A DNA stretch of 64,000 bases from Patescibacteria group bacterium (GTDB taxonomy: Bacteria > Patescibacteriota > Microgenomatia > UBA1400 > MFAQ01). Within the stretch, counting starts at the first letter, position 1; each line of letters starts with the position of its first letter. The notes beneath the pieces are model-generated. The model saw only the letters and a program-made list of their open reading frames with translations. It did no database searches and had not been told where the DNA came from. Both the position numbers and the translations under genes were made by a program. The stretch is taken from NCBI GenBank assembly GCA_943355005.1, contig CALRDV010000001.1:15410-79409 (forward strand), read 5' to 3'. Shown here in pieces: positions 19,024 to 62,188 of this stretch.

Positions 19024-19064
19024 TATGTATACAAAATATTTCTTCGTGTTTATATCTTATTATT

Positions 19065-19340
19065 TTTTCTGGATTCCGGGTCAAGCCCGGAATGACAATT
19101 AGAATTTGTTTGTTCAAAATATTACCCGTCATGCCGGACCTGATCCGGCATCCAGTAGTTTAAGTATTCAATACGAACTTACGTTTTCTGGATTCCGGGT
19201 CAAGCCCGGTATGACAATTAGAATTTGTTTGTTCAAAATATTACCCGTCATGCCGGACCTGATCCGGCATCCAGTAGGTTAAGTATTCAATACTAACTTA
19301 CGTTTTCTGGATTCCGGGTCAAGCCCGGAATGACAATGAG
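19065..19340. mobile_element. MITE-like composite element, 119-bp unit tandemly repeated 2.3 times
   Basis: Each unit holds CTGGATTCCGGGTCAAGCCCGGAATGAC ... GTCATGCCGGACCTGATCCGGCATCCAG, i.e. 28-bp imperfect terminal inverted repeats that are themselves members of the hairpin family. Units are ~97% identical (period 19065/19184/19303). Confidence 0.8.
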
Positions 19341-30122: not shown

Positions 30123-30128
30123 TATAAT
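30123..30128 (+). promoter_or_regulatory. -10 box TATAAT 6 nt upstream of the ruvX ATG (leaderless mRNA), contributed by the repeat flank ...CAATCTACCTGCGACTATAATATCCCC
   Basis: TSS predicted at or next to the A of the ATG at 30135. No SD. Confidence 0.55.
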
Positions 30129-30134
30129 ATCCCC

Positions 30135-30527
30135 ATGCCCATCATTCTCTGTCTCGACCCCGGCACCGCTCACACCGGCATTGCTATCTCCCAAGAGGGG
30201 ATACTCGCCACACCCGTTGCCACTGTCTACGAAAAAGATGTAGACCAGCTAGTCACCAAACTCCTGCCATATTTAAATAAATATAATCCGGACAAAATTG
30301 TCATGGGAGTGCCGGAATATGGTCCCATCGTCAAATTCTCAACGGACCTGAGCGAAAAAATCTACGCGGTTTATCCAAAGGAAATAGTATTCTTCAGAGA
30401 AGACCTCAGCTCTCACACAGCTAGGAATGTGATGAAGGCTCAAGGTAAGACACTTCTGAGGCGCAAGAAAGAAGAACACCAAACCGCCGCCGCCCTCATC
30501 CTCCAAGAATACCTCGACTCTCTCTAG
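30135..30527 (+). CDS. ruvX: YqgF/RuvX-like Holliday-junction resolvase / pre-16S rRNA nuclease
   Basis: ILCLDPGTAHTGIAIS..GILATP. 130 aa. Followed by mltG (conserved yqgF-mltG pairing). Confidence 0.8.
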   Translation: MPIILCLDPGTAHTGIAISQEGILATPVATVYEKDVDQLVTKLLPYLNKYNPDKIVMGVPEYGPIVKFSTDLSEKIYAVYPKEIVFFREDLSSHTARNVMKAQGKTLLRRKKEEHQTAAALILQEYLDSL

Positions 30528-40384: not shown

Positions 40385-40391
40385 TCCCTCC

Positions 40392-40433
40392 CAGAGGAGT
40401 CTCCTTGTAGGTAATCCTGCGAGGAGACTCCTC
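40392..40433 (+). other. Long hairpin (11-bp stem GAGGAGTCTCC / GGAGACTCCTC) directly after the rpsG stop
   Basis: No U-tract. Followed 20 nt later by a canonical terminator. Confidence 0.5.
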
Positions 40434-40450
40434 ACATTGGTCCCTATCCC

Positions 40451-40480
40451 AAAAACTCCCGCTTCAGGCGGGATTTTTGG
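40451..40480 (+). terminator. Rho-independent terminator after rpsG (start of island A)
   Basis: CTCCCGC-ttca-GGCGGGA-TTTTTGG. Confidence 0.8.
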
Positions 40481-40497
40481 TATTATAAGACAATATG

Positions 40498-40506
40498 TGA
40501 TATAAT
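40498..40506 (+). promoter_or_regulatory. extended -10 TGaTATAAT + ATCTCC (cassette promoter)
   Basis: T-tract of the upstream terminator abuts the -10. Consensus with other cassettes: TATAATATCCCAGAAC. Confidence 0.5.
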
Positions 40507-40547
40507 ATCTCCAAAGCACATTATCTTAATCTCGATTGGAGGCTATT

Positions 40548-40817
40548 TTGGAAAATAAATTGATTCTTATGCTGGACGAGGGCACTATTGGTCTTATTCT
40601 GCCCGGAGATAAGTTGTTGGTAATCGAATGCAACACAGTTGCCAGCATGGGAAGAATTCCTGAAGATAAGTACTTTATTCACCCCAAAGATTTGGCAAGT
40701 CTCCCTGCGGAAGTTAAAATAGCCATCAACGCCGTATGTGTATCGCATGGCATAACTTCACCTTTTGAGAGGTTTGTCGCAGAATCTTCCGTCAGAAGTC
40801 CAGGATCCTACGATTGA
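40548..40817 (+). CDS. cassette A1: hypothetical small protein (start TTG 40548 after GGAGG; alternatives 40536/40569)
   Basis: GGAGG at 40538-40542, 5 nt before the TTG. Confidence 0.45.
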   Translation: MENKLILMLDEGTIGLILPGDKLLVIECNTVASMGRIPEDKYFIHPKDLASLPAEVKIAINAVCVSHGITSPFERFVAESSVRSPGSYD

Positions 40818-40823
40818 TAAAAT

Positions 40824-40850
40824 AGCACCCTCATCTAGAGGGTGTTTTTA
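40824..40850 (+). terminator. Rho-independent terminator
   Basis: CACCCTC-atcta-GAGGGTG-TTTTT. Immediately followed by TATAAT 40855-40860 + ATCCCAT. Confidence 0.8.
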
Positions 40851-40907
40851 TTGGTATAATATCCCATATAAGTATTGCACGTTCATTCTAAAACCAAGGA
40901 GGTTTCC

Positions 40908-41474
40908 ATGGGAATATTTCAAGGTCATCAAGTTTTGGCTCTTGTTGTTGATATTTTTTGGCCGCTCATTACGGCCATTTCAATTAGGTTTTTAACGAAA
41001 GCTCATACAAGACCAAATCGTAGATTGATGTATTGGGAGCTACCCATTATTTACATTATCATTTTGTTTCTTCCCAACTCGGTATACGCCATGTTGGAAT
41101 TGAAACATTTGTTGATGGTAGATACGGTAGCGGATATTCCAAACATCTGGTCCTTTATTGTTTTTGGCGGAATCTCTCTATTTGGATATCTGGTGACTCT
41201 TTATCAGAATATTCTAATTGCGAATTTTTTTACCAAAACTAAAACAGGCCACATGAAAGCATTTGCTCTTCTATCGATTGTCGGTGGTTTTGGTGGTGTT
41301 GCGGGTCTGTTAAATTTTAATAGTTACGAGGGAATTCTGACCCCACAGGTTTTGTATCTCATTACTAAGATGATTTTTCACCACCCGGTACTGATCGTTC
41401 TTGGAATTGGTGTTTCGGTGTTTATCTTTTTATCTACAGTTTTAGTGCGTCGCATTCAAAAGCCTTCCTCTTAA
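40908..41474 (+). CDS. cassette A2: polytopic membrane protein (188 aa, ~6 TM)
   Basis: SD AAGGAGG at 40896-40902, 5 nt before the ATG. The ORF-track N-extension is discarded. Confidence 0.6.
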   Translation: MGIFQGHQVLALVVDIFWPLITAISIRFLTKAHTRPNRRLMYWELPIIYIIILFLPNSVYAMLELKHLLMVDTVADIPNIWSFIVFGGISLFGYLVTLYQNILIANFFTKTKTGHMKAFALLSIVGGFGGVAGLLNFNSYEGILTPQVLYLITKMIFHHPVLIVLGIGVSVFIFLSTVLVRRIQKPSS

Positions 41475-41491
41475 CAGGAAGGTTTTTTTAT
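41463..41491 (+). terminator. Rho-independent terminator (stop codon in loop)
   Basis: CCTTCC-tcttaaca-GGAAGG-TTTTTTT. Confidence 0.8.
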
Positions 41492-41611
41492 TCCAAGATA
41501 TATCTATACTACAAATAAAATAGGTAGTATATTAATGTCTCTGGAGGAAAAATATAGAATCTACTTGTGTAGTTAAACTTTGTTTCCAAATGTTCTTTAA
41601 AAAGGAGATTA

Positions 41612-42184
41612 ATGAAAAAGACATTTTCTTTTGTGATGATTTCTGTATGTGCAACTCTGCTCATTTCCTGTACCGCAGTATTTTCTTCACTTGGCTACGT
41701 TCCCAGAGCAGATCTGGACGCCGCCACTAAGCAAGTTAGTGATTTAAATACCAAGCTGACTACGGCAAATACCGAGATCGAGAAGTTGAAGACCGGTAAT
41801 GCCGAGAAAGATGTAAAACTCACGGACTATCAAAGCCAAATAACCGAAGCCCAGTCCGACCTTACCAAGATTAAAAATCAGCTTTCTCAATCGGACCTCA
41901 CGCTCGAAGATTGGAAATCACTTCAGTGCGAACAAGACTGGGATATGCTTTGGTACAAAGCCATTTTCAGCTGGCCTCTCACGGATTATTCCAACCTGCC
42001 GGACTACTTTCATTACTATATTGCAGTGACTCAGTGGTCCACCGATCCAAAATGGCAATTGGACGATTCGAAGGCTTTTTCGGTTGTCCTTTTCGATCGG
42101 GATAACGATCAATCCATGGCGATTGACACGGTCAATGACTGTGTGATCTTGAATCCGGATGTGTTCGATTTTTTAGAAAAATAG
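41612..42184 (+). CDS. cassette A3: lipoprotein (lipobox LLISC) with coiled-coil region
   Basis: MKKTFSFVMISVCATLLISC. SD AAGGAG 5 nt upstream. Confidence 0.65.
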   Translation: MKKTFSFVMISVCATLLISCTAVFSSLGYVPRADLDAATKQVSDLNTKLTTANTEIEKLKTGNAEKDVKLTDYQSQITEAQSDLTKIKNQLSQSDLTLEDWKSLQCEQDWDMLWYKAIFSWPLTDYSNLPDYFHYYIAVTQWSTDPKWQLDDSKAFSVVLFDRDNDQSMAIDTVNDCVILNPDVFDFLEK

Positions 42185-42223
42185 ACACGGTGCAAGCCAA
42201 AGCTCCTTCACCCTAATCCATTA

Positions 42224-42250
42224 TCGGCCGCTCACGCGGCCGGTTTTTTA
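42224..42250 (+). terminator. Rho-independent terminator
   Basis: GGCCGC-tcac-GCGGCC-GGTTTTTT. Followed by GAGATAATCACCCCAG, a promoter-like sequence. Confidence 0.8.
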
Positions 42251-42304
42251 TATGAGATAATCACCCCAGTACTTTGACTAAATCTTTTTGTTTAAGGAGA
42301 TCTC

Positions 42305-43765
42305 ATGAAACCCAGTCTCAAATTGCTAGATCACGATCTTGTATTGCGGGTTGTTCGCGAAGCCTTTTCGTTGCTTATGAAGCCGGGAATTAAAGTTCAG
42401 AACTTGGAAGCCCGCCAATTACTTACCTCTGCCGGTGCCACAGTAAACGAAGAAACTCAGGTTGTTCAAATTCCTGAATATGTCGTTCGTCTGGCGCTGA
42501 ACTCGGTTCCTTCAGAATTTTGGCTTTATGATCTGGCCGGGAAACCTACTGTTCACTACGGTGGAGACTCAGTCCACTTTGATCCGGGTTCTTCCGGCAT
42601 CAATATTCTGGATCCGGAAACTCTTGAACATCGTGAAGCTACAACTGCTGACTTGATTCGAATTATCAAAGTCGCCGAAGGTATTCCTCAGTACGACGCC
42701 CAGTCCACTGCCGTCGTCTGTAGCGATGTCCCCCAGGAGATTCAGGATTTGTATCGACTTTATCTCGTCCTTCTTCACTCATCCAAGCCAATTGTTACCG
42801 GCGCATTTTCTAACAAGAACATCGGCAACATGATTGAGATGCTCGCTATCATGTCCGGCAGTGCCGGAAATCTTCGGCGTTATCCTCGAGCTGTCTTTGA
42901 TGTTTGTCCGTCTCCTCCTCTCATCTGGTCAAACTTTGGTGCCGGCAATCTCATGGCTCTCGCTCGAGCCGGTGTTCCGGCCGAAATGATTTCGATGCCC
43001 ATCGCCGGTGCCGCTGCTCCCGTAACCCTTATCGGTTCCGTTGTTCAGCACACGGCCGAGTCGCTCGCCGGCATCGTCATTCATCAGCTGGCCTATCCCG
43101 GTTCTCCCATTGTCTGGGGCGGAGCTCCTGCCATTATGGACATGCGCAAGGGTAGCACTCCCATGGGTGCCATCGAGACTGCCATGATCGATTGTTCATA
43201 CGCCCAGGTTGGTAAATATCTTGGTGTTCCTACCCACACTTATTTGGGAGGAAGTGACGCCAAGTCGGTCGACGCTCAAGCCGGGCTCGAAGGAGCCATG
43301 TCCATTCTCATCGGCGCCCTCAGTGGTGTCAATATGATTTCCGGCGCCGGCATGATCGACTCACTTCTTTGCATGAGTCCGGAAAAGCTGGTTATTGATG
43401 CCGAATCCATTGCTATGGCTCGTCGCATGCTAGTAGGAATGAAAACACCCACAGACACTTTGGCTACCGGATTTTACGAAGGAGTCAATTTTAAAGGCGG
43501 AGATTTCCTTAAGCAGCGCATCACCATGCAACTTTTCCAGCAGGAGCAAAATCTTCCCGGTCGCGTCATCGATCGAGGCTCCACTCGCGAATGGAAAAAT
43601 TCGGGTAAATTGGACACATTTGGCCGGGCCAAGCTCGAAGTCAAAAAGCTTGTGGCTTCGTACCAATATCCAGACCTAAATCTCGCTCGCGAAGCTGCCT
43701 TGCACCACTTTGTCCGCAATCTGGCCAAAAAAGCCGGCGTGACCAATCTCCCGACTCTCGAATAA
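42305..43765 (+). CDS. cassette A4: MttB-superfamily (trimethylamine/glycine-betaine:corrinoid) methyltransferase homolog, no in-frame amber
   Basis: 486 aa. Matches MttB-family blocks: ...HTAESLAGIVIHQLAYPGSPIVWGGAP...GSDAKSVDAQAGLEGAMS...SGAGMIDS...SPEKLVIDAE... SD AAGGAGA. Confidence 0.65.
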   Translation: MKPSLKLLDHDLVLRVVREAFSLLMKPGIKVQNLEARQLLTSAGATVNEETQVVQIPEYVVRLALNSVPSEFWLYDLAGKPTVHYGGDSVHFDPGSSGINILDPETLEHREATTADLIRIIKVAEGIPQYDAQSTAVVCSDVPQEIQDLYRLYLVLLHSSKPIVTGAFSNKNIGNMIEMLAIMSGSAGNLRRYPRAVFDVCPSPPLIWSNFGAGNLMALARAGVPAEMISMPIAGAAAPVTLIGSVVQHTAESLAGIVIHQLAYPGSPIVWGGAPAIMDMRKGSTPMGAIETAMIDCSYAQVGKYLGVPTHTYLGGSDAKSVDAQAGLEGAMSILIGALSGVNMISGAGMIDSLLCMSPEKLVIDAESIAMARRMLVGMKTPTDTLATGFYEGVNFKGGDFLKQRITMQLFQQEQNLPGRVIDRGSTREWKNSGKLDTFGRAKLEVKKLVASYQYPDLNLAREAALHHFVRNLAKKAGVTNLPTLE

Positions 43766-43771
43766 TCATCT

Positions 43772-43804
43772 GTCATTGCGAGCGCTGCGCGGCAATCTAC
43801 CTGC
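43772..43804 (+). repeat. Hairpin repeat GTCATTGCGAGCGCTGCGCGGCAATCTACCTGC
   Basis: Same GTCATTGCGAG...GGCAATCTACCTGC family as 30017/30087. Confidence 0.85.
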
Positions 43805-43821
43805 TATAAAACTTCTCCCTC

Positions 43822-43850
43822 CACCCCGTCTAAACAGCGGGGTTTTTATT
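43822..43850 (+). terminator. Rho-independent terminator
   Basis: CCCCG-tctaaacag-CGGGG-TTTTTATT. Confidence 0.75.
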
Positions 43851-43930
43851 GGCCTATAGTTGATTTACACCCCAGTTTTTGATAGAATACCCCAAAGTTT
43901 AACTCTTTAATAACTAAATGGAGGTGACCC

Positions 43931-44296
43931 GTGTGGCACTCGATTATGCGCTTTTTTAAGTCTTTCGGGAAAAAACCGGTTCAAAAAAAAGATAACGTAG
44001 TTCTTGTGAACATCGATTATCAGCCGGATTTTTTCTTCCTTCCCACTCATTTTTCCGGCAACGACCCGATCAGACAAATTTCAGAACGGGATCTGGATCT
44101 TTTGCTCAGATGGTACTCAGGTGTTCCCTCAACTCCCGATCCGATTTGGGATGCAATTATGCGAGGTGATGAGGAGCGCCCTTTACCGGCAGTTACCGAC
44201 CTGAACCAAGCTATACAAGACATGGAGACAATGTGGCTGAACAAGGGAAATCTCCCTGACGCAGAAATATTCAAAGCCTTCAAACCGGAGATCTAA
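43931..44296 (+). CDS. cassette A5: hypothetical protein (121 aa, GTG start after GGAGGTGA)
   Basis: SD GGAGGT 6 nt upstream. Confidence 0.5.
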   Translation: MWHSIMRFFKSFGKKPVQKKDNVVLVNIDYQPDFFFLPTHFSGNDPIRQISERDLDLLLRWYSGVPSTPDPIWDAIMRGDEERPLPAVTDLNQAIQDMETMWLNKGNLPDAEIFKAFKPEI

Positions 44297-44297
44297 A

Positions 44298-44648
44298 ATG
44301 GATACCGAAGATGTTCTTATACTTCTGGCATTATTATTACTGCTCGTTATCGTTTTCTTGGTAATTGGATTGGGGACCCAAAGTTCCCCCGGTGTAGAAA
44401 AGCTTCCTAATGGACAAATTTTTGTCCCTGACGGTGCAACTCTTCGAGAGTATAACTCCCTGTCAAAAATGTTTTACTCAATCACCCCTCAAGGGGACAC
44501 TGTCACTATCAATCTTATAGTTGATATGAAAGTTAAGCTCTGTGACCCCAATTGCACTAAAGAAGTTTGGACAGGCTTTATTAGTTGGACCTTCGAAAAA
44601 GTCCCGGGAGGCATAAACGTCACCCCTCCATTTGCTTCTGTTCCCTAG
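44298..44648 (+). CDS. cassette A6: signal-anchored small protein (116 aa)
   Basis: Starts 1 nt after the A5 stop. TM LILLALLLLLVIVFLVIGL. Confidence 0.5.
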   Translation: MDTEDVLILLALLLLLVIVFLVIGLGTQSSPGVEKLPNGQIFVPDGATLREYNSLSKMFYSITPQGDTVTINLIVDMKVKLCDPNCTKEVWTGFISWTFEKVPGGINVTPPFASVP

Positions 44649-44671
44649 CTTTAGCCTCGCCTTCACCATCC

Positions 44672-44713
44672 GTCATTGCGAATCTCGTACTCGAGCTGTG
44701 GCAATCTCACTCC
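44672..44713 (+). repeat. Hairpin repeat GTCATTGCGAATCTCGTACTCGAGCTGTGGCAATCTCACTCC
   Basis: Near-identical to the 62948 copy. Contains the nested palindrome CTCGtaCTCGAG. Confidence 0.85.
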
Positions 44714-44716
44714 ACC

Positions 44717-44746
44717 CACCCCGTCTAACCAACGGGGTTTTATTTT
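44717..44746 (+). terminator. Rho-independent terminator
   Basis: CCCCG-tctaaccaa-CGGGG-TTTTATTTTATT. Confidence 0.75.
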
Positions 44747-44747
44747 A

Positions 44748-45041
44748 TTAACACATATCGGCCACCATCGGCATCACCTCAATGCACGGCGTTCCCCAGC
44801 TATGATTCTTCAGAATAAATTCATGTATATCTGTCAATTTAATTTTGGTCGTCTTCAAACTAATCAAAACCACTTCTTCCCCCGAAGCCCCCTTCGGTCC
44901 CGGATACATAAGGAATGTGGGTGTAATCTTCGCCGTGCCACACAGTTCTTTATCCAGCATCTCTTTACAAAGTTTCTCTGCCTCTTTCTTGGTCGGGCAG
45001 GGGATATTGATAACCACCGGATCCATATCACTTATATTCAT
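44748..45041 (-). CDS. cutA: CutA1-like divalent-cation tolerance protein (PII-like fold)
   Basis: ...CGTAKITPTFLMYPGP..EEVVLISLKTT....HSWGTPCIEVMPM parallels the CutA pattern (C..i.p.i.siY.WkG...EeevllllKT...HpYEvPEiialpi). Confidence 0.55.
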   Translation of the reverse strand: MNISDMDPVVINIPCPTKKEAEKLCKEMLDKELCGTAKITPTFLMYPGPKGASGEEVVLISLKTTKIKLTDIHEFILKNHSWGTPCIEVMPMVADMC

Positions 45042-45193
45042 ACCTGTATTTTTTCACCAAGGTCTTTAATAAGCAATCTTTTTATACATGGCGTCATTCG
45101 AGTGATTATGGTAAAATTAGCCTCGTGAATAACTCTCCTTCAGTGGGGAGGTTTAATTCGTCAAAATAATTAATCAATAACCAATAACCAAAA

Positions 45194-56361: not shown

Positions 56362-56880
56362 ATGGCATACGCAGGTAACACAAATAATTCTAATAGAGGC
56401 GGCGGTCGACCGGCTCCCGAAGGTTTCGAGCAAGTTCTCGAGATTCGACGTGTGAGTAAGAAGACCCAAGGTGGTACAAATGTGTCATTCTCGGCTCTAG
56501 TTGTTACCGGAGACAAAAAAGGTAAAGTCGGTCTTGGTTTGGCCAAAGCCCCGAACGTTGCCGATGCTATCAAAAAAGCTATCCGTCTTAGTAATCGCGA
56601 TCTGGTCCAGGTTCCTTTAGTTGACGGTACCATTCCTTACGAAACTAAATCCAAATACGGCGCTTCCAAAGTTCTTTTCCGACCCGCTCCCAAAGGCACA
56701 GGCATCATTGCCGGTTCCTCAGTCCGAGCCGTCGTCGAAGCTGCCGGAGTTACCGACATTGTTTGTAAGGTTCTAGGAACCAACAATAAGACCAGTAACG
56801 CCCGTGCTACTTTCAAAGCCCTTAAACAAATCGAAGTTCTAGCCAAGAAATATCAAATGCTTAAAGCCGCCCGCGCTTAA
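56362..56880 (+). CDS. rpsE: 30S ribosomal protein S5
   Basis: ...EIRRVSKKTQGGTNVSFSALVVTGDKKGKVGLGLAKA... Confidence 0.95.
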   Translation: MAYAGNTNNSNRGGGRPAPEGFEQVLEIRRVSKKTQGGTNVSFSALVVTGDKKGKVGLGLAKAPNVADAIKKAIRLSNRDLVQVPLVDGTIPYETKSKYGASKVLFRPAPKGTGIIAGSSVRAVVEAAGVTDIVCKVLGTNNKTSNARATFKALKQIEVLAKKYQMLKAARA

Positions 56881-56894
56881 AACCAATAAAACCT

Positions 56895-57344
56895 ATGATG
56901 TTACTTTCAAACCTCCCCAAGCTTTCCAAAACCCCCAAGAAGAGACTCGGTCGTGGCTTCGGCTCCGGCGTCGGTGGTCACACTGTCGGTCGTGGTCAAA
57001 AAGGTCAAAAGACCCGTGGCGTCATGCCTCTTTGGTTCGAAGGTGGACAGCTCCCTTTGGTTCGACGTACTCCTTTCATCAAAGGTAAACACCGCTTCCA
57101 GGTCATCAAGCTCCAGCCCATTACCGTCAACTTCGATCGTTTGGACAAGTTTGAAGCCAATTCCGTCATTGATCCTCTTTTCTTAGCTACAGCCCTCAAG
57201 GTCAGCGAGAAAGAAGCCAAACGTGGCTTCAAGATCATCGCGACAGGTAAGCTCACCAAAGCCCTTCAGGTGGCCGTTCCAGCCTCTGCAGGCGCCATCA
57301 AAGCCATAGAAGCAGCCGGCGGCAAAGTCCTCACCTCCAAGTAA
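56895..57344 (+). CDS. rplO: 50S ribosomal protein L15 (no rpmD/L30 between rpsE and rplO)
   Basis: LSKTPKKRLGRGFGSGVGGHTVGRGQKGQKTRG. Confidence 0.95.
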   Translation: MMLLSNLPKLSKTPKKRLGRGFGSGVGGHTVGRGQKGQKTRGVMPLWFEGGQLPLVRRTPFIKGKHRFQVIKLQPITVNFDRLDKFEANSVIDPLFLATALKVSEKEAKRGFKIIATGKLTKALQVAVPASAGAIKAIEAAGGKVLTSK

Positions 57345-57396
57345 TTCTAAAAGGCTAGTTGAGCCTGTTTATAGTATTGAACTATAGGAAATTTTG

Positions 57397-57405
57397 TGAT
57401 ATAAT
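57397..57405 (+). promoter_or_regulatory. extended -10 TGaTATAAT (cassette B1 promoter)
   Basis: GTGATATAATCCACG. Same word as the island A promoter at 40498. Confidence 0.5.
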
Positions 57406-57451
57406 CCACGCATCGTTTAGAACGCCCACATTCACAAAAAAGGAGGGCATC

Positions 57452-58168
57452 ATGCCCAGTTATGTCGAAAAATTTCGCTTAGACCATCTAATATCCATGC
57501 TCAGACAGGCTCGTGGAGATATTTTTGCCATCATCTCGGCAATCGCCGAGTATGAGCTTTGGCACCAGGACTACCTTGAGCGCAATGCTCAGGCCGCTTC
57601 CGTACGGAAGCAGTATCTTCAAGGTTTCGAAGAAGATATGGCTCAGTTGACCCGTGCCGACTTTCAGCACCCCACGGCGGGGACTCACGCCGTAGATGGC
57701 CAATTGGCTGTTGGTGGAGAGTCTGAACTTGATGGGTTTGATCTTCTCCAGCCAATTAAGGGTGATCGTGTTCCGAATCCAGATTACCCGGAATCCTGCA
57801 GTATTGGGTCAGATGGATGGACGGCAGCTGCGTTTTCGGGGCGGACTCCTCGTATCGTCCCATTCGATTCCGAGAACGATGATGTGTGGGAGATGGAGGA
57901 GCCAGCTGAAGATGTAGATTGGGACGAGCTTGCCTTTGTCTTTAGGCAGGTTGGTTTCGACACAAGACAGCTGTACGGCATCACCAACATCTCTGATATC
58001 CATATCGATTATCATCGGCGCGGTCTCGCTGTACTCCCAAAGGGCGCACGTCACAATTCACCTCTCGGTCGCGAAACCTGGGAAGATCGGTTTGTCGCTG
58101 AGATACGTGAAAGCGCATCGAAAAACAACTGGCACCCCTGGCTGATCGGCACCAACTTGTTCGAATGA
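57452..58168 (+). CDS. cassette B1: hypothetical acidic protein (238 aa)
   Basis: SD AAGGAGGG 57440-57447, 4 nt before the ATG. The ORF-track N-extension is discarded. Confidence 0.6.
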   Translation: MPSYVEKFRLDHLISMLRQARGDIFAIISAIAEYELWHQDYLERNAQAASVRKQYLQGFEEDMAQLTRADFQHPTAGTHAVDGQLAVGGESELDGFDLLQPIKGDRVPNPDYPESCSIGSDGWTAAAFSGRTPRIVPFDSENDDVWEMEEPAEDVDWDELAFVFRQVGFDTRQLYGITNISDIHIDYHRRGLAVLPKGARHNSPLGRETWEDRFVAEIRESASKNNWHPWLIGTNLFE

Positions 58169-58175
58169 TCCCAAA

Positions 58176-58205
58176 CCACACCCTAACCGGTGTGGTTTTT
58201 ATTTT
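58176..58205 (+). terminator. Rho-independent terminator
   Basis: CCACACC-ctaacc-GGTGTGG-TTTTTATTTT. Followed by TATAAT (58211-58216) ATCCTAGAACATT. Confidence 0.8.
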
Positions 58206-58260
58206 AGTAGTATAATATCCTAGAACATTGTAATTCTATCTATTGCTTAGGAGGCAACTT

Positions 58261-58683
58261 ATGTTTAGTTTAAGTCTGTTGGGAACGGCCACAGACAATC
58301 ATTCGGCTTACCTGGTTCGACCAGGAATGATGAACGGCGCCTTACATTTCTTTCATGAAATTAAGTGGGTCGAGTTCGAAGGGCTGAGGGTGAACGGAGA
58401 TTGGGGACAAGCCAGGTTTGTTTCTTCGAATATTGTCGGCAGTCATATCTATCAGCTGACCGAATTAACATCCGAAGATCCGGAGAAGCTCGAGATGACC
58501 GAGTTCCACATCGCCATCCACTTCTCATCCGCCACCCCCCAAGAAGCCTCTGAGGCTATATTGGACTGGGCAATTCACTCTGGCGCCAGTGAAGGCGCCA
58601 CCATTGAACCGGCCAACGCAGAAGGAACCAAATGGTTCATATGTTTACCGGCATTGTTCAAGTTCAGTCTCGAGATCGTCTAA
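58261..58683 (+). CDS. cassette B2: hypothetical protein (140 aa), possibly VOC/glyoxalase-like fold
   Basis: SD AGGAGG 58249-58254. The VOC resemblance (…GTKWFICLP..FKFSLEIV) is weak. Confidence 0.55.
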   Translation: MFSLSLLGTATDNHSAYLVRPGMMNGALHFFHEIKWVEFEGLRVNGDWGQARFVSSNIVGSHIYQLTELTSEDPEKLEMTEFHIAIHFSSATPQEASEAILDWAIHSGASEGATIEPANAEGTKWFICLPALFKFSLEIV

Positions 58684-58686
58684 TTC

Positions 58687-58718
58687 AAATCCACTCTATA
58701 TAGGGTGGATTTTTATTT
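58687..58718 (+). terminator. Rho-independent terminator
   Basis: ATCCAC-tctatatagg-GTGGAT-TTTTATTTT. Followed by TATAAT (58726-58731) ACCCCAGAACGTT. Confidence 0.8.
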
Positions 58719-58778
58719 TCTGATGTATAATACCCCAGAACGTTTCTAGAAAAACAACACTTTGAAATCGGAGGAAAT

Positions 58779-59162
58779 ATGAGCTTTACACCCCAAAATG
58801 CTTTAGGGAAAGCAAATTCTAATTTACAGGGAACCGAATTTTTTCTTGGAGCCAAAAGAGCACTCGGTGAAAAATTTACTAAAGCCGATGTCTTTATCCT
58901 CCTTATTGCACGAATTAAGGAAATTTTAAGCTTTAAGGATGGTCGGGATGAAAAATGGCTGGGCATGTTAAAAGATGCAATCAATCAAAACATGACCTCG
59001 GCGCTGAAGGAATATTTATCAAATCAGATAGAATATCTTCGAACATCCAATCCTGATTACGAAATATTGATCTTGACTCCTGCACTTGTAAGCCTTTCTT
59101 TTAGTTCAAATTTAGATCCATATCTTCTTCTCGGACTAGAAGAGTTCTACAAAACCCTCTAG
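58779..59162 (+). CDS. cassette B3: hypothetical protein (127 aa)
   Basis: SD GGAGG 6 nt upstream. Confidence 0.55.
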   Translation: MSFTPQNALGKANSNLQGTEFFLGAKRALGEKFTKADVFILLIARIKEILSFKDGRDEKWLGMLKDAINQNMTSALKEYLSNQIEYLRTSNPDYEILILTPALVSLSFSSNLDPYLLLGLEEFYKTL

Positions 59163-59167
59163 GCACT

Positions 59168-59196
59168 CGCCCACCTTCACCGGTGGGTTTTTTATT
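59168..59196 (+). terminator. Rho-independent terminator
   Basis: CCCACC-ttcacc-GGTGGG-TTTTTTATT. Followed by TATAAT (59205-59210) ATCCCAGAACATT. Confidence 0.8.
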
Positions 59197-59242
59197 ATGG
59201 GTGTTATAATATCCCAGAACATTAAATTAAGGAGGTTAGATA

Positions 59243-59611
59243 ATGGAAACCATAGAAACGATCCAATTTGTTATTGAGCTCATTGGCAGTGTATTTAAGA
59301 TTGTTCAGATGGCAATTCATCTGGTTTTTGTCGGCATCGTTACTCTATTCCGTCCCGGTTCCGATAAAGAGTGGCGCCAGGCATGGATGTGGGTTGTCTT
59401 CCCGGTATTTTTTGTGGGAGGCTTCGGCATCCTCGTCTCATGGTTAATCCACTACATATTTGCTTTGCTGGGATTTACTCTTCTGGGTTGGATTCTGATA
59501 TTGATCTGGCTATTTTACTTTTGGGTTGGTGAGCCATTTATGTATATTACCTACCCGGAGTATGAAATTAACCGCGAGGAGAAATCTCATTGGATCGACA
59601 CCGGCGAATAA
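59243..59611 (+). CDS. cassette B4: small membrane protein (122 aa, 3 TM)
   Basis: SD AAGGAGG. Co-transcribed with B5 (no terminator between them). Confidence 0.55.
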   Translation: METIETIQFVIELIGSVFKIVQMAIHLVFVGIVTLFRPGSDKEWRQAWMWVVFPVFFVGGFGILVSWLIHYIFALLGFTLLGWILILIWLFYFWVGEPFMYITYPEYEINREEKSHWIDTGE

Positions 59612-59627
59612 ATCTCTGGAGGTAAAA

Positions 59628-60074
59628 ATGTTCAAATCTCTTAGTGAACAGATCGACGATGCACTTGCAAACCTTACGATACTTGAACTTCGTATCGGTC
59701 ACGCACGTCAATCTGGGACAATGCTTACGAAAGAAAAATTGTTTGAGTACTTGATGGCCTGGGCTAATTATCGTAATTTCTTTGCTCTTTCGCATTACCG
59801 CCATGAATCAAAATGGAGTGGCATTATTCTCGATTGCCAAGCAAAGATCATGACCCAACAGTTAAAGGACTTTCTCAAAGAAATCAAAGATAATCTCGAA
59901 GCTCGCATCCCACCTACCGAAAGAATCGTTTTGGGGTACAAACCAATCGATGTTCTTCACCCTCTCCCGGCCGCCATTTCCGTTAGCAACATACTAGTTG
60001 AAAACGAAAAGCTATTTACGACTTTGCCACTCCTACTGTTGGCACTTATCGAAATATCTGACTCCAACACATAG
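59628..60074 (+). CDS. cassette B5: hypothetical protein (148 aa)
   Basis: SD GGAGGT 59618-59623. Internal start chosen from the longer ORF 59526. Confidence 0.5.
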   Translation: MFKSLSEQIDDALANLTILELRIGHARQSGTMLTKEKLFEYLMAWANYRNFFALSHYRHESKWSGIILDCQAKIMTQQLKDFLKEIKDNLEARIPPTERIVLGYKPIDVLHPLPAAISVSNILVENEKLFTTLPLLLLALIEISDSNT

Positions 60075-60100
60075 CCCACCACCCGGTGGGTTTTTTTGTT
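60073..60100 (+). terminator. Rho-independent terminator
   Basis: CCCACC-accc-GGTGGG-TTTTTTT. Followed by TACAAT (60100-60105). Confidence 0.8.
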
Positions 60101-60138
60101 ACAATTTCAGTGAACTTTCAAATTTAGATTGGAGACAC

Positions 60139-60483
60139 ATGATTACTCATGTCAAAATTAGAGCACCTTTCGACCACGTTGACGGACAGACTTTTTATGT
60201 CACACCGGAATTAAAAGAAAAAATATTTATTCTTGGTGCAACTCTCGTGCTTGATCACAACAATTTTTGTATGATTACGCCTGAGGGTGAAGTGGTAAGA
60301 ACAAAGTGGACCGTAGTCGAAGTTATTTCCGACAGACCTACCGGCTACAATGATCGCAAAATGGTTCGAGATATCGTAGGTGGCTTAATAGCTGTTAGTT
60401 CCATCGGACGAGCTTCTTGGGGACAAATATCTATAAAATTCTTTGAAGGGTTGGTTTTTTTCAACGAAGAAGAGGTTGTTTAG
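60139..60483 (+). CDS. cassette B6: hypothetical protein (114 aa)
   Basis: SD GGAGA 5 nt upstream. Internal start of ORF 59998. Confidence 0.5.
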   Translation: MITHVKIRAPFDHVDGQTFYVTPELKEKIFILGATLVLDHNNFCMITPEGEVVRTKWTVVEVISDRPTGYNDRKMVRDIVGGLIAVSSIGRASWGQISIKFFEGLVFFNEEEVV

Positions 60484-60492
60484 TGAGATTAC

Positions 60493-60521
60493 AAACCCAC
60501 AATTATCTGTGGGTTTTTTTA
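60493..60521 (+). terminator. Rho-independent terminator
   Basis: ACCCACA-attatc-TGTGGGT-TTTTTTT. Followed by TATAAT 60522-60527. Confidence 0.8.
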
Positions 60522-60535
60522 TATAATATCGCCTG

Positions 60536-60859
60536 GTGTTCAAAAACGAAACTATTTTTACCAAAGCGGTACTAACTGCCAAAAATCATATTGCCCGGTC
60601 AGAGGAGGGATTTCTTCTCTTGTCTAAAGATCGGTCATTGTCTGAAATGTCCACTCCCATCACAGGTCTTACATCTGAGGAAACCTTGGAAAGAAGAACT
60701 GACTTTTTAGAATTTATTAATCAAATGAATGAAGATGGTCTCAGAAATCATTTAGCTATGGTTGAACACCAAATAGACGTTGCCCTTAGTCGGCCAATTC
60801 AAGGAACTTCCGAACTGTATTGGCAGAGAATTGTTATACTGGATAGACTAGCCTCTTAA
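60536..60859 (+). CDS. cassette B7: hypothetical protein (107 aa; GTG start 9 nt after the -10, probably leaderless; start uncertain)
   Basis: No SD. TATAAT 60522-60527. Confidence 0.4.
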   Translation: MFKNETIFTKAVLTAKNHIARSEEGFLLLSKDRSLSEMSTPITGLTSEETLERRTDFLEFINQMNEDGLRNHLAMVEHQIDVALSRPIQGTSELYWQRIVILDRLAS

Positions 60860-60907
60860 AGGAAAACTTCTAAAGTAAGTTTGAACTGATAGAATAGTAC
60901 TCACGAT

Positions 60908-62188
60908 ATGAATAATATATTAGCTCCTCTGCGTGCCTTGTTCAAAATTAAAGACCTCCGTAACCGTATTCTTTTTACAGCCGGAGTTATTTTATTATTC
61001 CGTTTGGTCGCCCACATTCCTACACCTGGCATAAATTTAGACGCTCTCAAGAATCTTTTTAATAGTTCTGCTTTTCTTTCTCTTTTGGACGTATTCTCAG
61101 GCGGAACCTTGACGAATTTTTCCGTCATGGCTCTCGGACTGAACCCTTATATCAACGCCTCCATTATCATGCAAATGCTTGGCATGGTAGTTCCGTCTTT
61201 GGAAGCGCTCCAGAAAGAAGGGGACTATGGTCGCCAAAAAATTAATCAATACACACGTCTACTTACCATTCCCCTAAGTTTCCTTCAGGGCATCGCTCTA
61301 ATTTTTCTACTTCGCAACCAGGGGCTTACGACCACAGCAGACCCTCTTAAGCTGGCCTCAATTGTCTTCACTCTAGCCGCCGGCACCTCATTCCTCATTT
61401 GGCTTGGCGAACAGCTAAATGAATACGGTGTTGGAAATGGAATTAGTCTGATTATCTTTGTCGGTATCGTTAGTCGTCTCCCGGTCGCCGCCGCACAGAC
61501 AATTGCCACCATCGATCCTTCCAAAATATTTGTATACCTCATCTTCTTATTCTTTGCCATTGCTTCGATCTACGCTATCGTTCGCGTTGGTGAAGCTGTC
61601 CGCGAAGTTCCCATTCAGTCCGCCCGCCGTGGAGCTTCCTTTACCTCTACTGTCGGCAATCATTTGCCACTCAAGCTCAATCAAGCCGGCGTCATCCCAA
61701 TCATCTTTGCCGTTTCCTTTATGTTAATTCCAAATTTACTAGGTCGGGTCTTTGCCTCATCCACTCAACCATTTTTATCCGGTTTTTCTCACACAGTAAC
61801 TACTTATTTGGCGCCCGATACCATTCTATATAATGCCCTCTATTTTGGCCTTGTTGTTGCCTTCTGTTATTTTTATACCGCCGTTGTCTTCAATCCGGAA
61901 AAAATCGCCAAAGATCTTCGTTCTTCCGGTTCCTTTATTCCCGGAGTCCGTCCTGGTCCCAATACTGTCGACTACTTAAACTTTGTTTTAAATCGCATTA
62001 CTTTAGTCGGAGCTTCCTTCTTAGGTTTAGTCGCCATCTTCCCTTCAATCGTTTCAGGTATGACAGGGATTGCTGGACTAGCTATTGGTGGTACAGGCAT
62101 TCTCATCGTCGTCTCGGTCGTTCTGGAAATTTTGAAAACAGTGAACTCTCAGCTCTACATGTACAGTTACGACAAATTTTTAGATTAA
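60908..62188 (+). CDS. secY: preprotein translocase subunit SecY
   Basis: 10 TM. ...[14 protein letters not shown]..., 426 aa. Confidence 0.95.

Follow-up and report, generated by a model that had tools for sequence, protein, structure and literature searches.

A row of small genes joined by a recurrent predicted terminator-promoter junction between rplO and secY in Collierbacteria

The DNA analysed here (the window) is a stretch of 64,000 nucleotides from a Patescibacteria group bacterium, contig CALRDV010000001.1. It carries a block of small genes, which we call island B, between the ribosomal-protein gene rplO and secY. The last base of rplO is at 57344 and the first of secY at 60908, which leaves 3.56 kb between them. 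Seven open reading frames (ORFs) of 107-238 amino acids, all on the + strand, occupy positions 57345-60907. An earlier note on this DNA, made from the sequence alone, had described small unknown genes at this site, and the ORF layout agrees with that description. The array is identical in a second, independent assembly, so island B is not a misassembly.

The conserved left border is the ORF of rplO (ribosomal protein L15; 56895-57344) and the conserved right border is secY (60908-62188). At the rplO stop codon, DNA homology with all relatives breaks off; it returns 20-50 nt before the secY ATG (60855-60887). From left to right, the island genes are g1 (57452-58168; 238 amino acids), g2 (58261-58683; 140 amino acids), g3 (58779-59162; 127 amino acids), g4 (59243-59611; 122 amino acids), g5 (59628-60074; 148 amino acids), g6 (60139-60483; 114 amino acids) and g7 (60536-60859; 107 amino acids, with a GTG start). 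The genes g4 and g5 form a bicistronic junction with a 16-nt spacer and no terminator between them, and g5 has its own Shine-Dalgarno (SD) sequence.

Strong hairpins followed by a T-run were found at 58173-58198, 58687-58712, 59169-59188, 60073-60092 and 60493-60516. Island B thereby holds five of the 15 + strand terminator sites of the window in 5.5% of its length, and the remaining 16 terminator-like sites of the window have stems unrelated to this signature hairpin. At the left end of the island, rplO is followed by a weak hairpin (57352-57366; AGGCTAGTTGAGCCT, then GTTTAT). Its stem has only 5 bp, and some read-through from the ribosomal-protein operon into g1 is therefore likely. A g1 promoter is predicted just downstream (57377-57405; TTGAAC-17-TATAAT with TG before the -10 box, 10 of 12 matches). 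The first signature terminator (58173-58203; CCACACC-loop-GGTGTGG, then TTTTT; dG -14.7) precedes the predicted promoter-leader module of g2 (TATAATATCCTAGAACATTGTAATT; 58211-58235). The second (58687-58717) follows g2 and precedes the module of g3 (starting TATAATACCCCAGAACGTT; 58726-58750), while the third (59169-59194; CCCACC-TTCA-CCGGTGGG, then T6) follows g3 and precedes the module of the g4-g5 bicistron (TGT-TATAAT-ATCCCAGAACATTAAATT; 59205-59229). These three modules were recognised both as motif matches and by a position weight matrix (PWM). Signature terminator 5 (60073-60099) overlaps the g5 stop codon and runs into a diverged module ahead of g6 (TGT-TACAAT-TTCAGTGAACTTTCAAATT; 60100-60124; PWM score 34.3), whose motif copy, the fourth found by the PWM scan, starts at 60100 and reads TACAATTTCAGTGAACTTTCAAATT. 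Signature terminator 6 (60493-60519; CCCACA-loop-TGTGGG, then T7) follows g6 and abuts the predicted -10 box of g7 (TATAAT; 60520-60525), which stands 10 nt ahead of the g7 start codon. No hairpin was found at the junction of g7 and secY. Here, an extended -10 promoter for secY is predicted (TGATAGAAT; 60887-60895), 12 nt before an ATG that has no SD sequence; the same -10 box is present in four relatives (L006, L011, L109, L111).

The 19-nt motif on which these modules are built occurs exactly at the three positions quoted in the earlier note (58211, 58726 and 59205), and a search of the whole 64 kb with up to 3 mismatches returned only these three copies (expected number 0.00). Other parts of the earlier description apply to most of the array rather than to all of it. 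Every unit was said to end in a hairpin and T-run, which is true of five of the seven gene ends and fails for g4, which is bicistronic with g5, and for g7. The statement that no -35 box is evident holds for the other promoters, and fails for g1. A strong SD sequence, which the note had given for most units, is absent from g7; the AGGAGGG at about 60604 lies inside the gene. A -10 box of their own is predicted for five of the six downstream units. The T-run is separated from the -10 box by 10-11 nt at three junctions and by 2 nt at the fourth (60100). The TGn extension is canonical at 59205, at 60100 and in the secY promoter, and absent at 58211, 58726 and 60520.

The SecY protein of the window is 72-96% identical to that of named Collierbacteria metagenome-assembled genomes (Candidatus Collierbacteria, Microgenomates group, candidate phyla radiation). 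In all 25 Collierbacteria-like loci that hold both genes, rplO and secY are 556-6340 bp apart, whereas this distance is 0-214 bp in 32 of the 33 loci from other candidate-phylum lineages. The sole exception outside Collierbacteria is a Patescibacteria group locus (L044; SecY 48% identical) with a gap of 6.1 kb. Hence, the two genes are contiguous in other candidate-phylum lineages, in line with the earlier note, and always interrupted in Collierbacteria. The content of the gap differs between species, which agrees with the note's picture of a cassette array or diversified locus. By mechanical ORF calling, the gaps of 35 loci contain 127 genes, nearly all on the + strand, that fall into 17 families and 31 singletons. 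Paralogues often stand in tandem, the order of the genes is conserved only in part, and loci on the deepest branches have a single gene in the gap. The commonest gap family passes the gathering threshold of DUF2284 and another passes that of Peptidase_M28; other products encoded in some of the gaps are a Rieske-fusion protein, an RnfD-like membrane protein and an S-adenosylmethionine (SAM) methyltransferase. Two gaps contain transposases: an IS200-like element with its own end hairpins (Y1_Tnp, Pfam E = 6.5e-26) lies directly 3' of a signature terminator at 8744-9330 of L020, and a DDE_Tnp_1 transposase lies in the gap of L105. Pfam scans of the gap ORFs of the window and its relatives detected no tyrosine recombinase, and none was found within 10 kb on either side; the genes called in these flanks are all ribosomal or translation genes, and none matches Phage_integrase.

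A PWM seeded on the motif was scanned over about 580 kb from 34 loci. This matrix was trained on instances from the gaps; the regular expressions for the hairpin and the leader were run uniformly over both strands of all DNA. The PWM gave 24 matches in gaps, one weak match outside and none on the minus strand. The signature hairpin (CCAC(C)C..(G)GGTGG-TTT) was found 39 times in 76 kb of gap DNA and not once in 506 kb of flanks, and the leader RGAACWTTYAMAW 13 times in gaps and never outside them. These counts bear out the claim of modular units with a repeated, locus-specific junction of terminator, promoter and SD sequence. The consensus of the module is (A)CCACCC-loop-GGGTGG, T4-6, GT(N), TAYAAT, AYCCCAGAACATTCAAATT, N5-15, GGAGG, N5-8 and a start codon. 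The 3' elements have near-perfect GC stems of 6-10 bp, with loops of 3-8 nt and a T-run behind them. The signature hairpin always stands 8-23 nt past a stop codon, has a dG of -12 to -17 kcal/mol, and is conserved in its loop as well as in its stem. In most relatives the T-run ends 2-5 nt ahead of the -10 box. Of the 24 modules, 22 have T at -3 and 15 have G at -2, and it is this extended -10 box in most copies that would account for the missing -35. The module stands ahead of at least 10 unrelated protein families and four singletons, and the non-coding junctions are better conserved than the proteins they serve. A search against Rfam gave no match above threshold, either for the window or for the island.

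Several further candidates were set aside. Matches of the motif and hairpin to viral contigs proved to be chance hits in unrelated AT-rich or GC-rich contexts. A dyad in the leader (AATATCC-CA-GAACATT), paired at 5 of 7 positions, is too weak to be claimed as an operator, and no LexA/Cheo-box (GAAC-N4-GTTC) is present. We found nothing relevant in the literature on Collierbacteria promoters or on hypervariability between rplO and secY.

For families shared between loci, protein identity correlates with SecY identity (r = 0.66-0.93), with means of 33-61% for island families versus 82-91% for SecY, and no pair in this comparison suggests recent transfer. As island identity tracks SecY identity at a far lower level, the array appears to be mostly vertically inherited and fast-evolving, and this co-divergence points to vertical descent with divergence, duplication and loss rather than to cassette capture. 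In one family, identity drops from 55% where SecY is 92% identical to 24% where it is 80% identical, so that divergence alone can yield apparent orphans. The genes g7 and g2 are under purifying selection. The ratio of nonsynonymous to synonymous substitution rates (dN/dS) of g7 is 0.07-0.15, compared to 0.02-0.05 for SecY and L15, and in g2 the proportion of nonsynonymous differences (pN) is 0.24-0.28 with the synonymous proportion (pS) saturated. Homologous recombination also appears to reshuffle the array. Two metagenomic strains (L110 at 7748 and L111 at 2348) share 99.9% identity across 1848 bp of island sequence and then diverge abruptly, being either unalignable or 72% identical past the breakpoint. 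Because this breakpoint lies inside the 3' end of a gene, the modules do not seem to act as breakpoints. The GC content of the island is uneven (37-52%); compositional foreignness was nevertheless rejected, as GC content at third codon positions (GC3) of the island genes lies mostly within the range of core genes.

The seven products were searched against Pfam, PHROGs, PADLOC and NCBIfam, and none of them gave a match above any cut-off. At the level of these library scans, the products have no recognisable domains, as the earlier note had stated; the statement does not extend to g2, which has a recognisable predicted fold. This protein is enzyme-like, and its predicted fold matches that of the VOC superfamily (glyoxalase I, FosX, fosfomycin- or bleomycin-resistance proteins), with paired beta-alpha-beta-beta-beta modules. 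Four residues (H14, E68, H83 and E138) are invariant in its 5-member family, and their spacing resembles that of the H/E/H/E metal-binding tetrad in glyoxalase I of E. coli (GlxI; H5/E56/H74/E122). Unlike the known superfamily, g2 has no sequence match to its Pfam, NCBIfam or PDB members, either in per-member Pfam scans or in a comparison of its profile with PDB sequences. Homologues of g2 are present in L004, L005, L108, L109, L110 and L111.

Among 1.84 billion proteins, the acidic g1 (isoelectric point 4.7) has one other representative (P0007, 33% identity), which is encoded in the rplO-secY gap of L110/L111 and has a g2 homologue directly behind it. The window's g1 is a near-orphan, distantly related to an acidic island family. 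Its AlphaFold2 model, from an alignment of two sequences, has a pLDDT of 47; a long N-terminal helix is predicted with confidence, and the rest is not predictable. Judging by hydropathy windows that cover residues 7-102, g4 is a small polytopic membrane protein. The earlier note had counted two membrane proteins, of which only g4 is clearly one by hydropathy. The orphan g5 matches itself alone among 5.8 billion clusters. Alignment of g3 with g5 (BLASTP, 28% identity, E = 2e-7) identifies the two as apparent distant paralogues, which points to duplication and divergence. None of the 110 related loci holds a homologue of g3, g4, g5 or g6. Hence, the same genes recur at the same site in a few relatives for g1, g2 and g7, and not for g3-g6.

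The gene caller missed g7 in the second assembly, but several lines of evidence suggest that it is a real gene translated from a leaderless mRNA. Its dN/dS is low, its start lies 10 nt after a TATAAT box, and its homologues in L001 and L097, with 82-83% amino-acid identity, keep this geometry with ATG in place of GTG and have a conserved N-terminus. The recurrence of this geometry in three genomes in turn supports the assignment of the -10 box. Elsewhere in the window, at 30123-30137, TATAATATCCCC stands 6 nt ahead of the ATG of an ORF at 30135-30527, which looks leaderless like g7.

In our view, island B is probably the local version of a Collierbacteria-specific hotspot between rplO and secY, filled with tandem, autonomous, moron-like transcription units. 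The signature hairpins would end transcription coming from the ribosomal-protein genes and from each upstream unit. A few nucleotides on, often 2-5 nt past the T-run, RNA polymerase would meet a promoter without a -35 box, often with an extended -10 (T-G-n-TAYAAT) followed by AYCCCA, and would probably re-initiate 6-8 nt past the -10 box. The resulting mRNAs would have a common 5' end, (A)GAACAUUCAAAUU, a strong GGAGG and a start codon. In this way, the terminators may insulate the accessory genes from the heavy transcription of the ribosomal-protein genes and from one another, and secY would be driven by its acquired promoter TGATAGAAT with a leader of roughly 5 nt. Because the leader AGAACATTCAAATT is conserved ahead of unrelated genes, the units are probably co-regulated, and the conserved region from +1 to +15 may control them jointly, as an operator that overlaps +1 or as an element of the 5' RNA. 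The array would change mainly by vertical processes (fast protein divergence, tandem duplication and loss), and also by homologous recombination between strains and the occasional insertion of an insertion sequence (IS) or metabolic gene, while the junction module would be kept by purifying selection or homogenised between copies. The products are heterogeneous accessory proteins to which no single function can be assigned; besides g2 and g4, they are lineage-restricted orphans.

Gene-flux hotspots between conserved core genes are known from comparative genomics as flexible genomic islets. Island B resembles these in its fixed position between conserved genes, its variable content and the occasional IS insertion. 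It differs from them in lying inside the most conserved bacterial operon, in a turnover that would consist mainly of divergence and duplication in situ, and in its conserved, locus-specific regulatory junction. The location in the spc operon and the signature junction are what distinguish it from ordinary core-gene hotspots. The closest model for the single units is provided by the morons of phages, which are inserted between neighbouring genes of a conserved operon and are transcribed independently of it (Cumby, Davidson and Maxwell 2012, PMC3594210). Like morons, the island units have their own predicted promoter and factor-independent terminator, stand between genes that are neighbours in relatives, and bring in accessory functions while leaving the flanking operon undisturbed. 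Unlike morons, their host is a cellular ribosomal-protein operon and they lack PHROG matches; they form arrays of up to about nine units with one common signature junction, and they are mostly inherited vertically, where morons spread horizontally among phages. In anatomy, a GC-rich hairpin and then a U-run shortly past the stop codon, the 3' elements resemble intrinsic terminators.

Several observations count against this reading, or at least limit it. Its terminators, promoters and start sites are predictions from sequence. Locus specificity was judged on 10-kb flanks and one 64-kb window, and the core of the promoter, a -10 box with AYCCCA, is not specific to the island: 22 copies lie outside gaps, and copies elsewhere in the window are found at 30123, 40855 and 43883. 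This core appears to be a general flavour of Collierbacteria promoters. Exact copies of the promoter-leader also occur at no fewer than three non-gap sites in metagenomes (at least L090, L096 and L100/L101), where they head other small proteins, and the signature hairpin was not found at these sites. Because of these copies, the promoter-leader would be a lineage-level regulatory element, behaving as the signature of a regulon rather than as a feature of this locus only. Furthermore, the full module stands before about a fifth of the gap genes (24 modules for 127 genes), and the TGn extension is canonical in only two of the five modules of the window. Lastly, the conservation of hairpin stem and loop exceeds what termination needs, which the proposed model does not explain.

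One of these non-gap copies has a setting of its own. In L100 (at 1673) and L101 (at 5364), on contigs of 1.09 Mb and 342 kb, the promoter-leader stands ahead of a gene that belongs to a different tandem row, one of small membrane proteins, at another place in a Collierbacteria genome; no signature hairpin is present there.

A stronger version of the model is conceivable, and we regard it as rather unlikely. Here, the whole junction of about 55-75 nt (hairpin, T-run, -10 box and the AGAACAUUCAAAUU leader) would act as a portable element of a new kind, regulatory and marking the boundaries of cassettes, that both defines a regulon and promotes the local duplication and capture of genes. If this were true, the site between rplO and secY would be a recombinase-less, integron-like gene nursery within a ribosomal operon. 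A factor that binds the region from +1 to +15 would then define a dedicated regulon, and orphans such as g3-g6 would be generated and tried out there.

A functional interpretation that is compatible with the proposed architecture, and to which we give a similarly small chance, takes up the effector/immunity-type proteins of the earlier note: the products would serve in conflicts, as orphan immunity proteins, effectors, or factors directed against phages or hosts, and an arms race would drive their rapid divergence. The products are small, fast-evolving and lineage-restricted, with tandem paralogues, and VOC-fold proteins such as g2 include toxin- and antibiotic-binding resistance proteins. Moreover, the repetitive intergenic sequences recall the recombinase-associated orphan immunity arrays (rAID-1) of Bacteroidales (Ross et al., bioRxiv 10.1101/471110), which share with island B a long array of small, fast-evolving genes in one orientation. 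Unlike rAID-1, island B has no XerD-family recombinase at its head and no mobile-element context, its site is fixed in the spc operon, and no homology to immunity genes was detected (no Pfam or PADLOC match at E <=1 passing any cut-off). Searches of PADLOC, the immunity and toxin families of Pfam, and PHROGs were equally without match, and no toxin gene or secretion system lies nearby. The recognisable members across the gaps are enzyme-like (DUF2284, M28-like peptidase, methyltransferase, Rieske) and dN/dS is well below 1, neither of which fits this interpretation well.

The earlier note had compared the array with an integron. Like an integron, island B consists of tandem one-gene modules in a single orientation with a repeated hairpin element between them, its content varies between genomes, and VOC-fold proteins like g2 are common as integron cassette products (3ghj, 3ey7). 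In a mechanistic form of this comparison, the conserved hairpin, with or without the leader, would serve as an attC-like recombination site at which an unlinked recombinase or an HUH/Y1 enzyme captures, excises or duplicates cassettes. This would suit the strict restriction of the hairpin to the locus, the retention of its stem and loop among unrelated cassettes, and among species whose synonymous divergence is saturated, and the presence of the junction ahead of at least 10 unrelated families. It would also suit the IS200-like Y1 transposase directly 3' of one hairpin in L020, but this single Y1 gene belongs to an ordinary IS that is bounded by hairpins of its own, and it was found in one of 35 loci. 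Neither in the gaps nor within 10 kb of them is there a tyrosine recombinase. The island lacks intI, the attI/attC architecture and a common Pc promoter; instead, each unit has its own predicted promoter and terminator. Whereas attC sites are imperfect palindromes of 57-141 nt with R''/L''-L'/R' boxes and a GTTRRRY core, no GTTRRRY core was seen on inspection of the 3' elements, and the hairpins have the anatomy of plain terminators. In addition, the families diverge in step with SecY without any sign of recent transfer, and the one recombination breakpoint that could be mapped is intragenic rather than at a module. The integron-like label is not supported, and we consider site-specific movement of cassettes quite unlikely.

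In another scenario, the site serves as a gene nursery in which the module duplicates locally and expresses non-coding or scrambled sequence, so that the orphans g3-g6 would have been born de novo. The solitary g5, the lack of homologues of g3-g6 in the 110 related loci, and a regulatory module whose conservation exceeds that of every coding sequence behind it would all be expected. However, the divergence of island families (55% at 92% SecY identity, 24% at 80%) suffices to erase homology, the paralogy of g3 and g5 points to duplication and divergence, and no non-coding ancestor sequence was identified. We judge this scenario very unlikely.

That the island is what is left of a prophage or other mobile element, integrated a single time in the ancestor of Collierbacteria, is extremely improbable: the units are built like morons (PMC3594210) and island GC is uneven, but the genes have no PHROG matches, integrase, att repeats and tRNA were not found, no repeats flank the island, GC3 stays mostly in the core-gene range, and the motif was not found in genuine viral contexts.

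Other parts of the window and of the operon have features of related or different kinds. A second island (Island A; 40385-45190) of about seven genes, with the same grammar as island B, lies between rpsG and fusA of the str operon. It has terminators at 40457, 40826, 41463, 42224, 43824 and 44719 and promoters TATAATATCCCA (40855) and TAGAATACCCCA (43883); its hairpin stems are heterogeneous, and it lacks the AGAACATTCAAATT leader. Beyond the right end of the window, the same genome has two unknown genes (133 and 146 amino acids) between map and infA (L113, 16399-17775). After secY, relatives encode a 226-amino-acid protein or a 291-amino-acid hydrolase-like protein (L108, 4489-5169; L111, 4221-5096), and conserved TAdAATAYCCCA promoters follow map in L001, L004, L006 and L007. 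Just upstream of rplO, the spacer between rpsE and rplO is 14 nt (56880-56895) and contains no rpmD (L30), a gene that is commonly absent from candidate-phylum bacteria.

A palindromic intergenic repeat similar to repetitive extragenic palindromes (REP), GTCATTCC(C/G)G(A/G)CCTGATC(G/C)GGAATC with TATAWAAAT often behind it, is present in at least 13 copies across the 64 kb (sites at 1992, 11415, 12854, 16696, 18733, 19128, 19247, 23045, 30051, 35643, 39866, 53931, 62250 and 62907). It is common to relatives and also occurs within the ribosomal-protein operon (between rplN and rplX, secY and adk, and adk and map). This repeat (GTCATTCCCGACC...) differs in sequence from the signature hairpin and is absent from island B; conversely, and unlike REP/RAYT palindromes, the signature hairpin has no copy in the 506 kb of flanks or in the rest of the window. 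Inverted copies of the REP-like element (families D3/D5) make up a tandem array of 3 x 119 bp, 93-96% identical, at 19060-19340. A second palindromic repeat, GTCATTCCGACCGTAGTGGAGGAATCTCA (family D4), is present in three copies (4050, 5522 and 62193).

No gene arrangement of bacteria is more conserved than the S10-spc-alpha cluster, and the adjacency of rplO and secY serves as an anchor in phylogenomics. An entire candidate-phylum lineage tolerates, and appears to exploit, a fast-evolving accessory array at precisely this place. For organisms without a genetic system, whose transcription signals are essentially unmapped, the junctions provide a set of promoter, leader and terminator elements defined by sequence. 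The array is also a warning for annotation, because leaderless genes like g7 escape gene callers. More generally, the locus offers a natural system for how new genes get insulated in a highly expressed operon, and its lineage-specific orphan proteins form a tractable set that may be relevant to life as an episymbiont.

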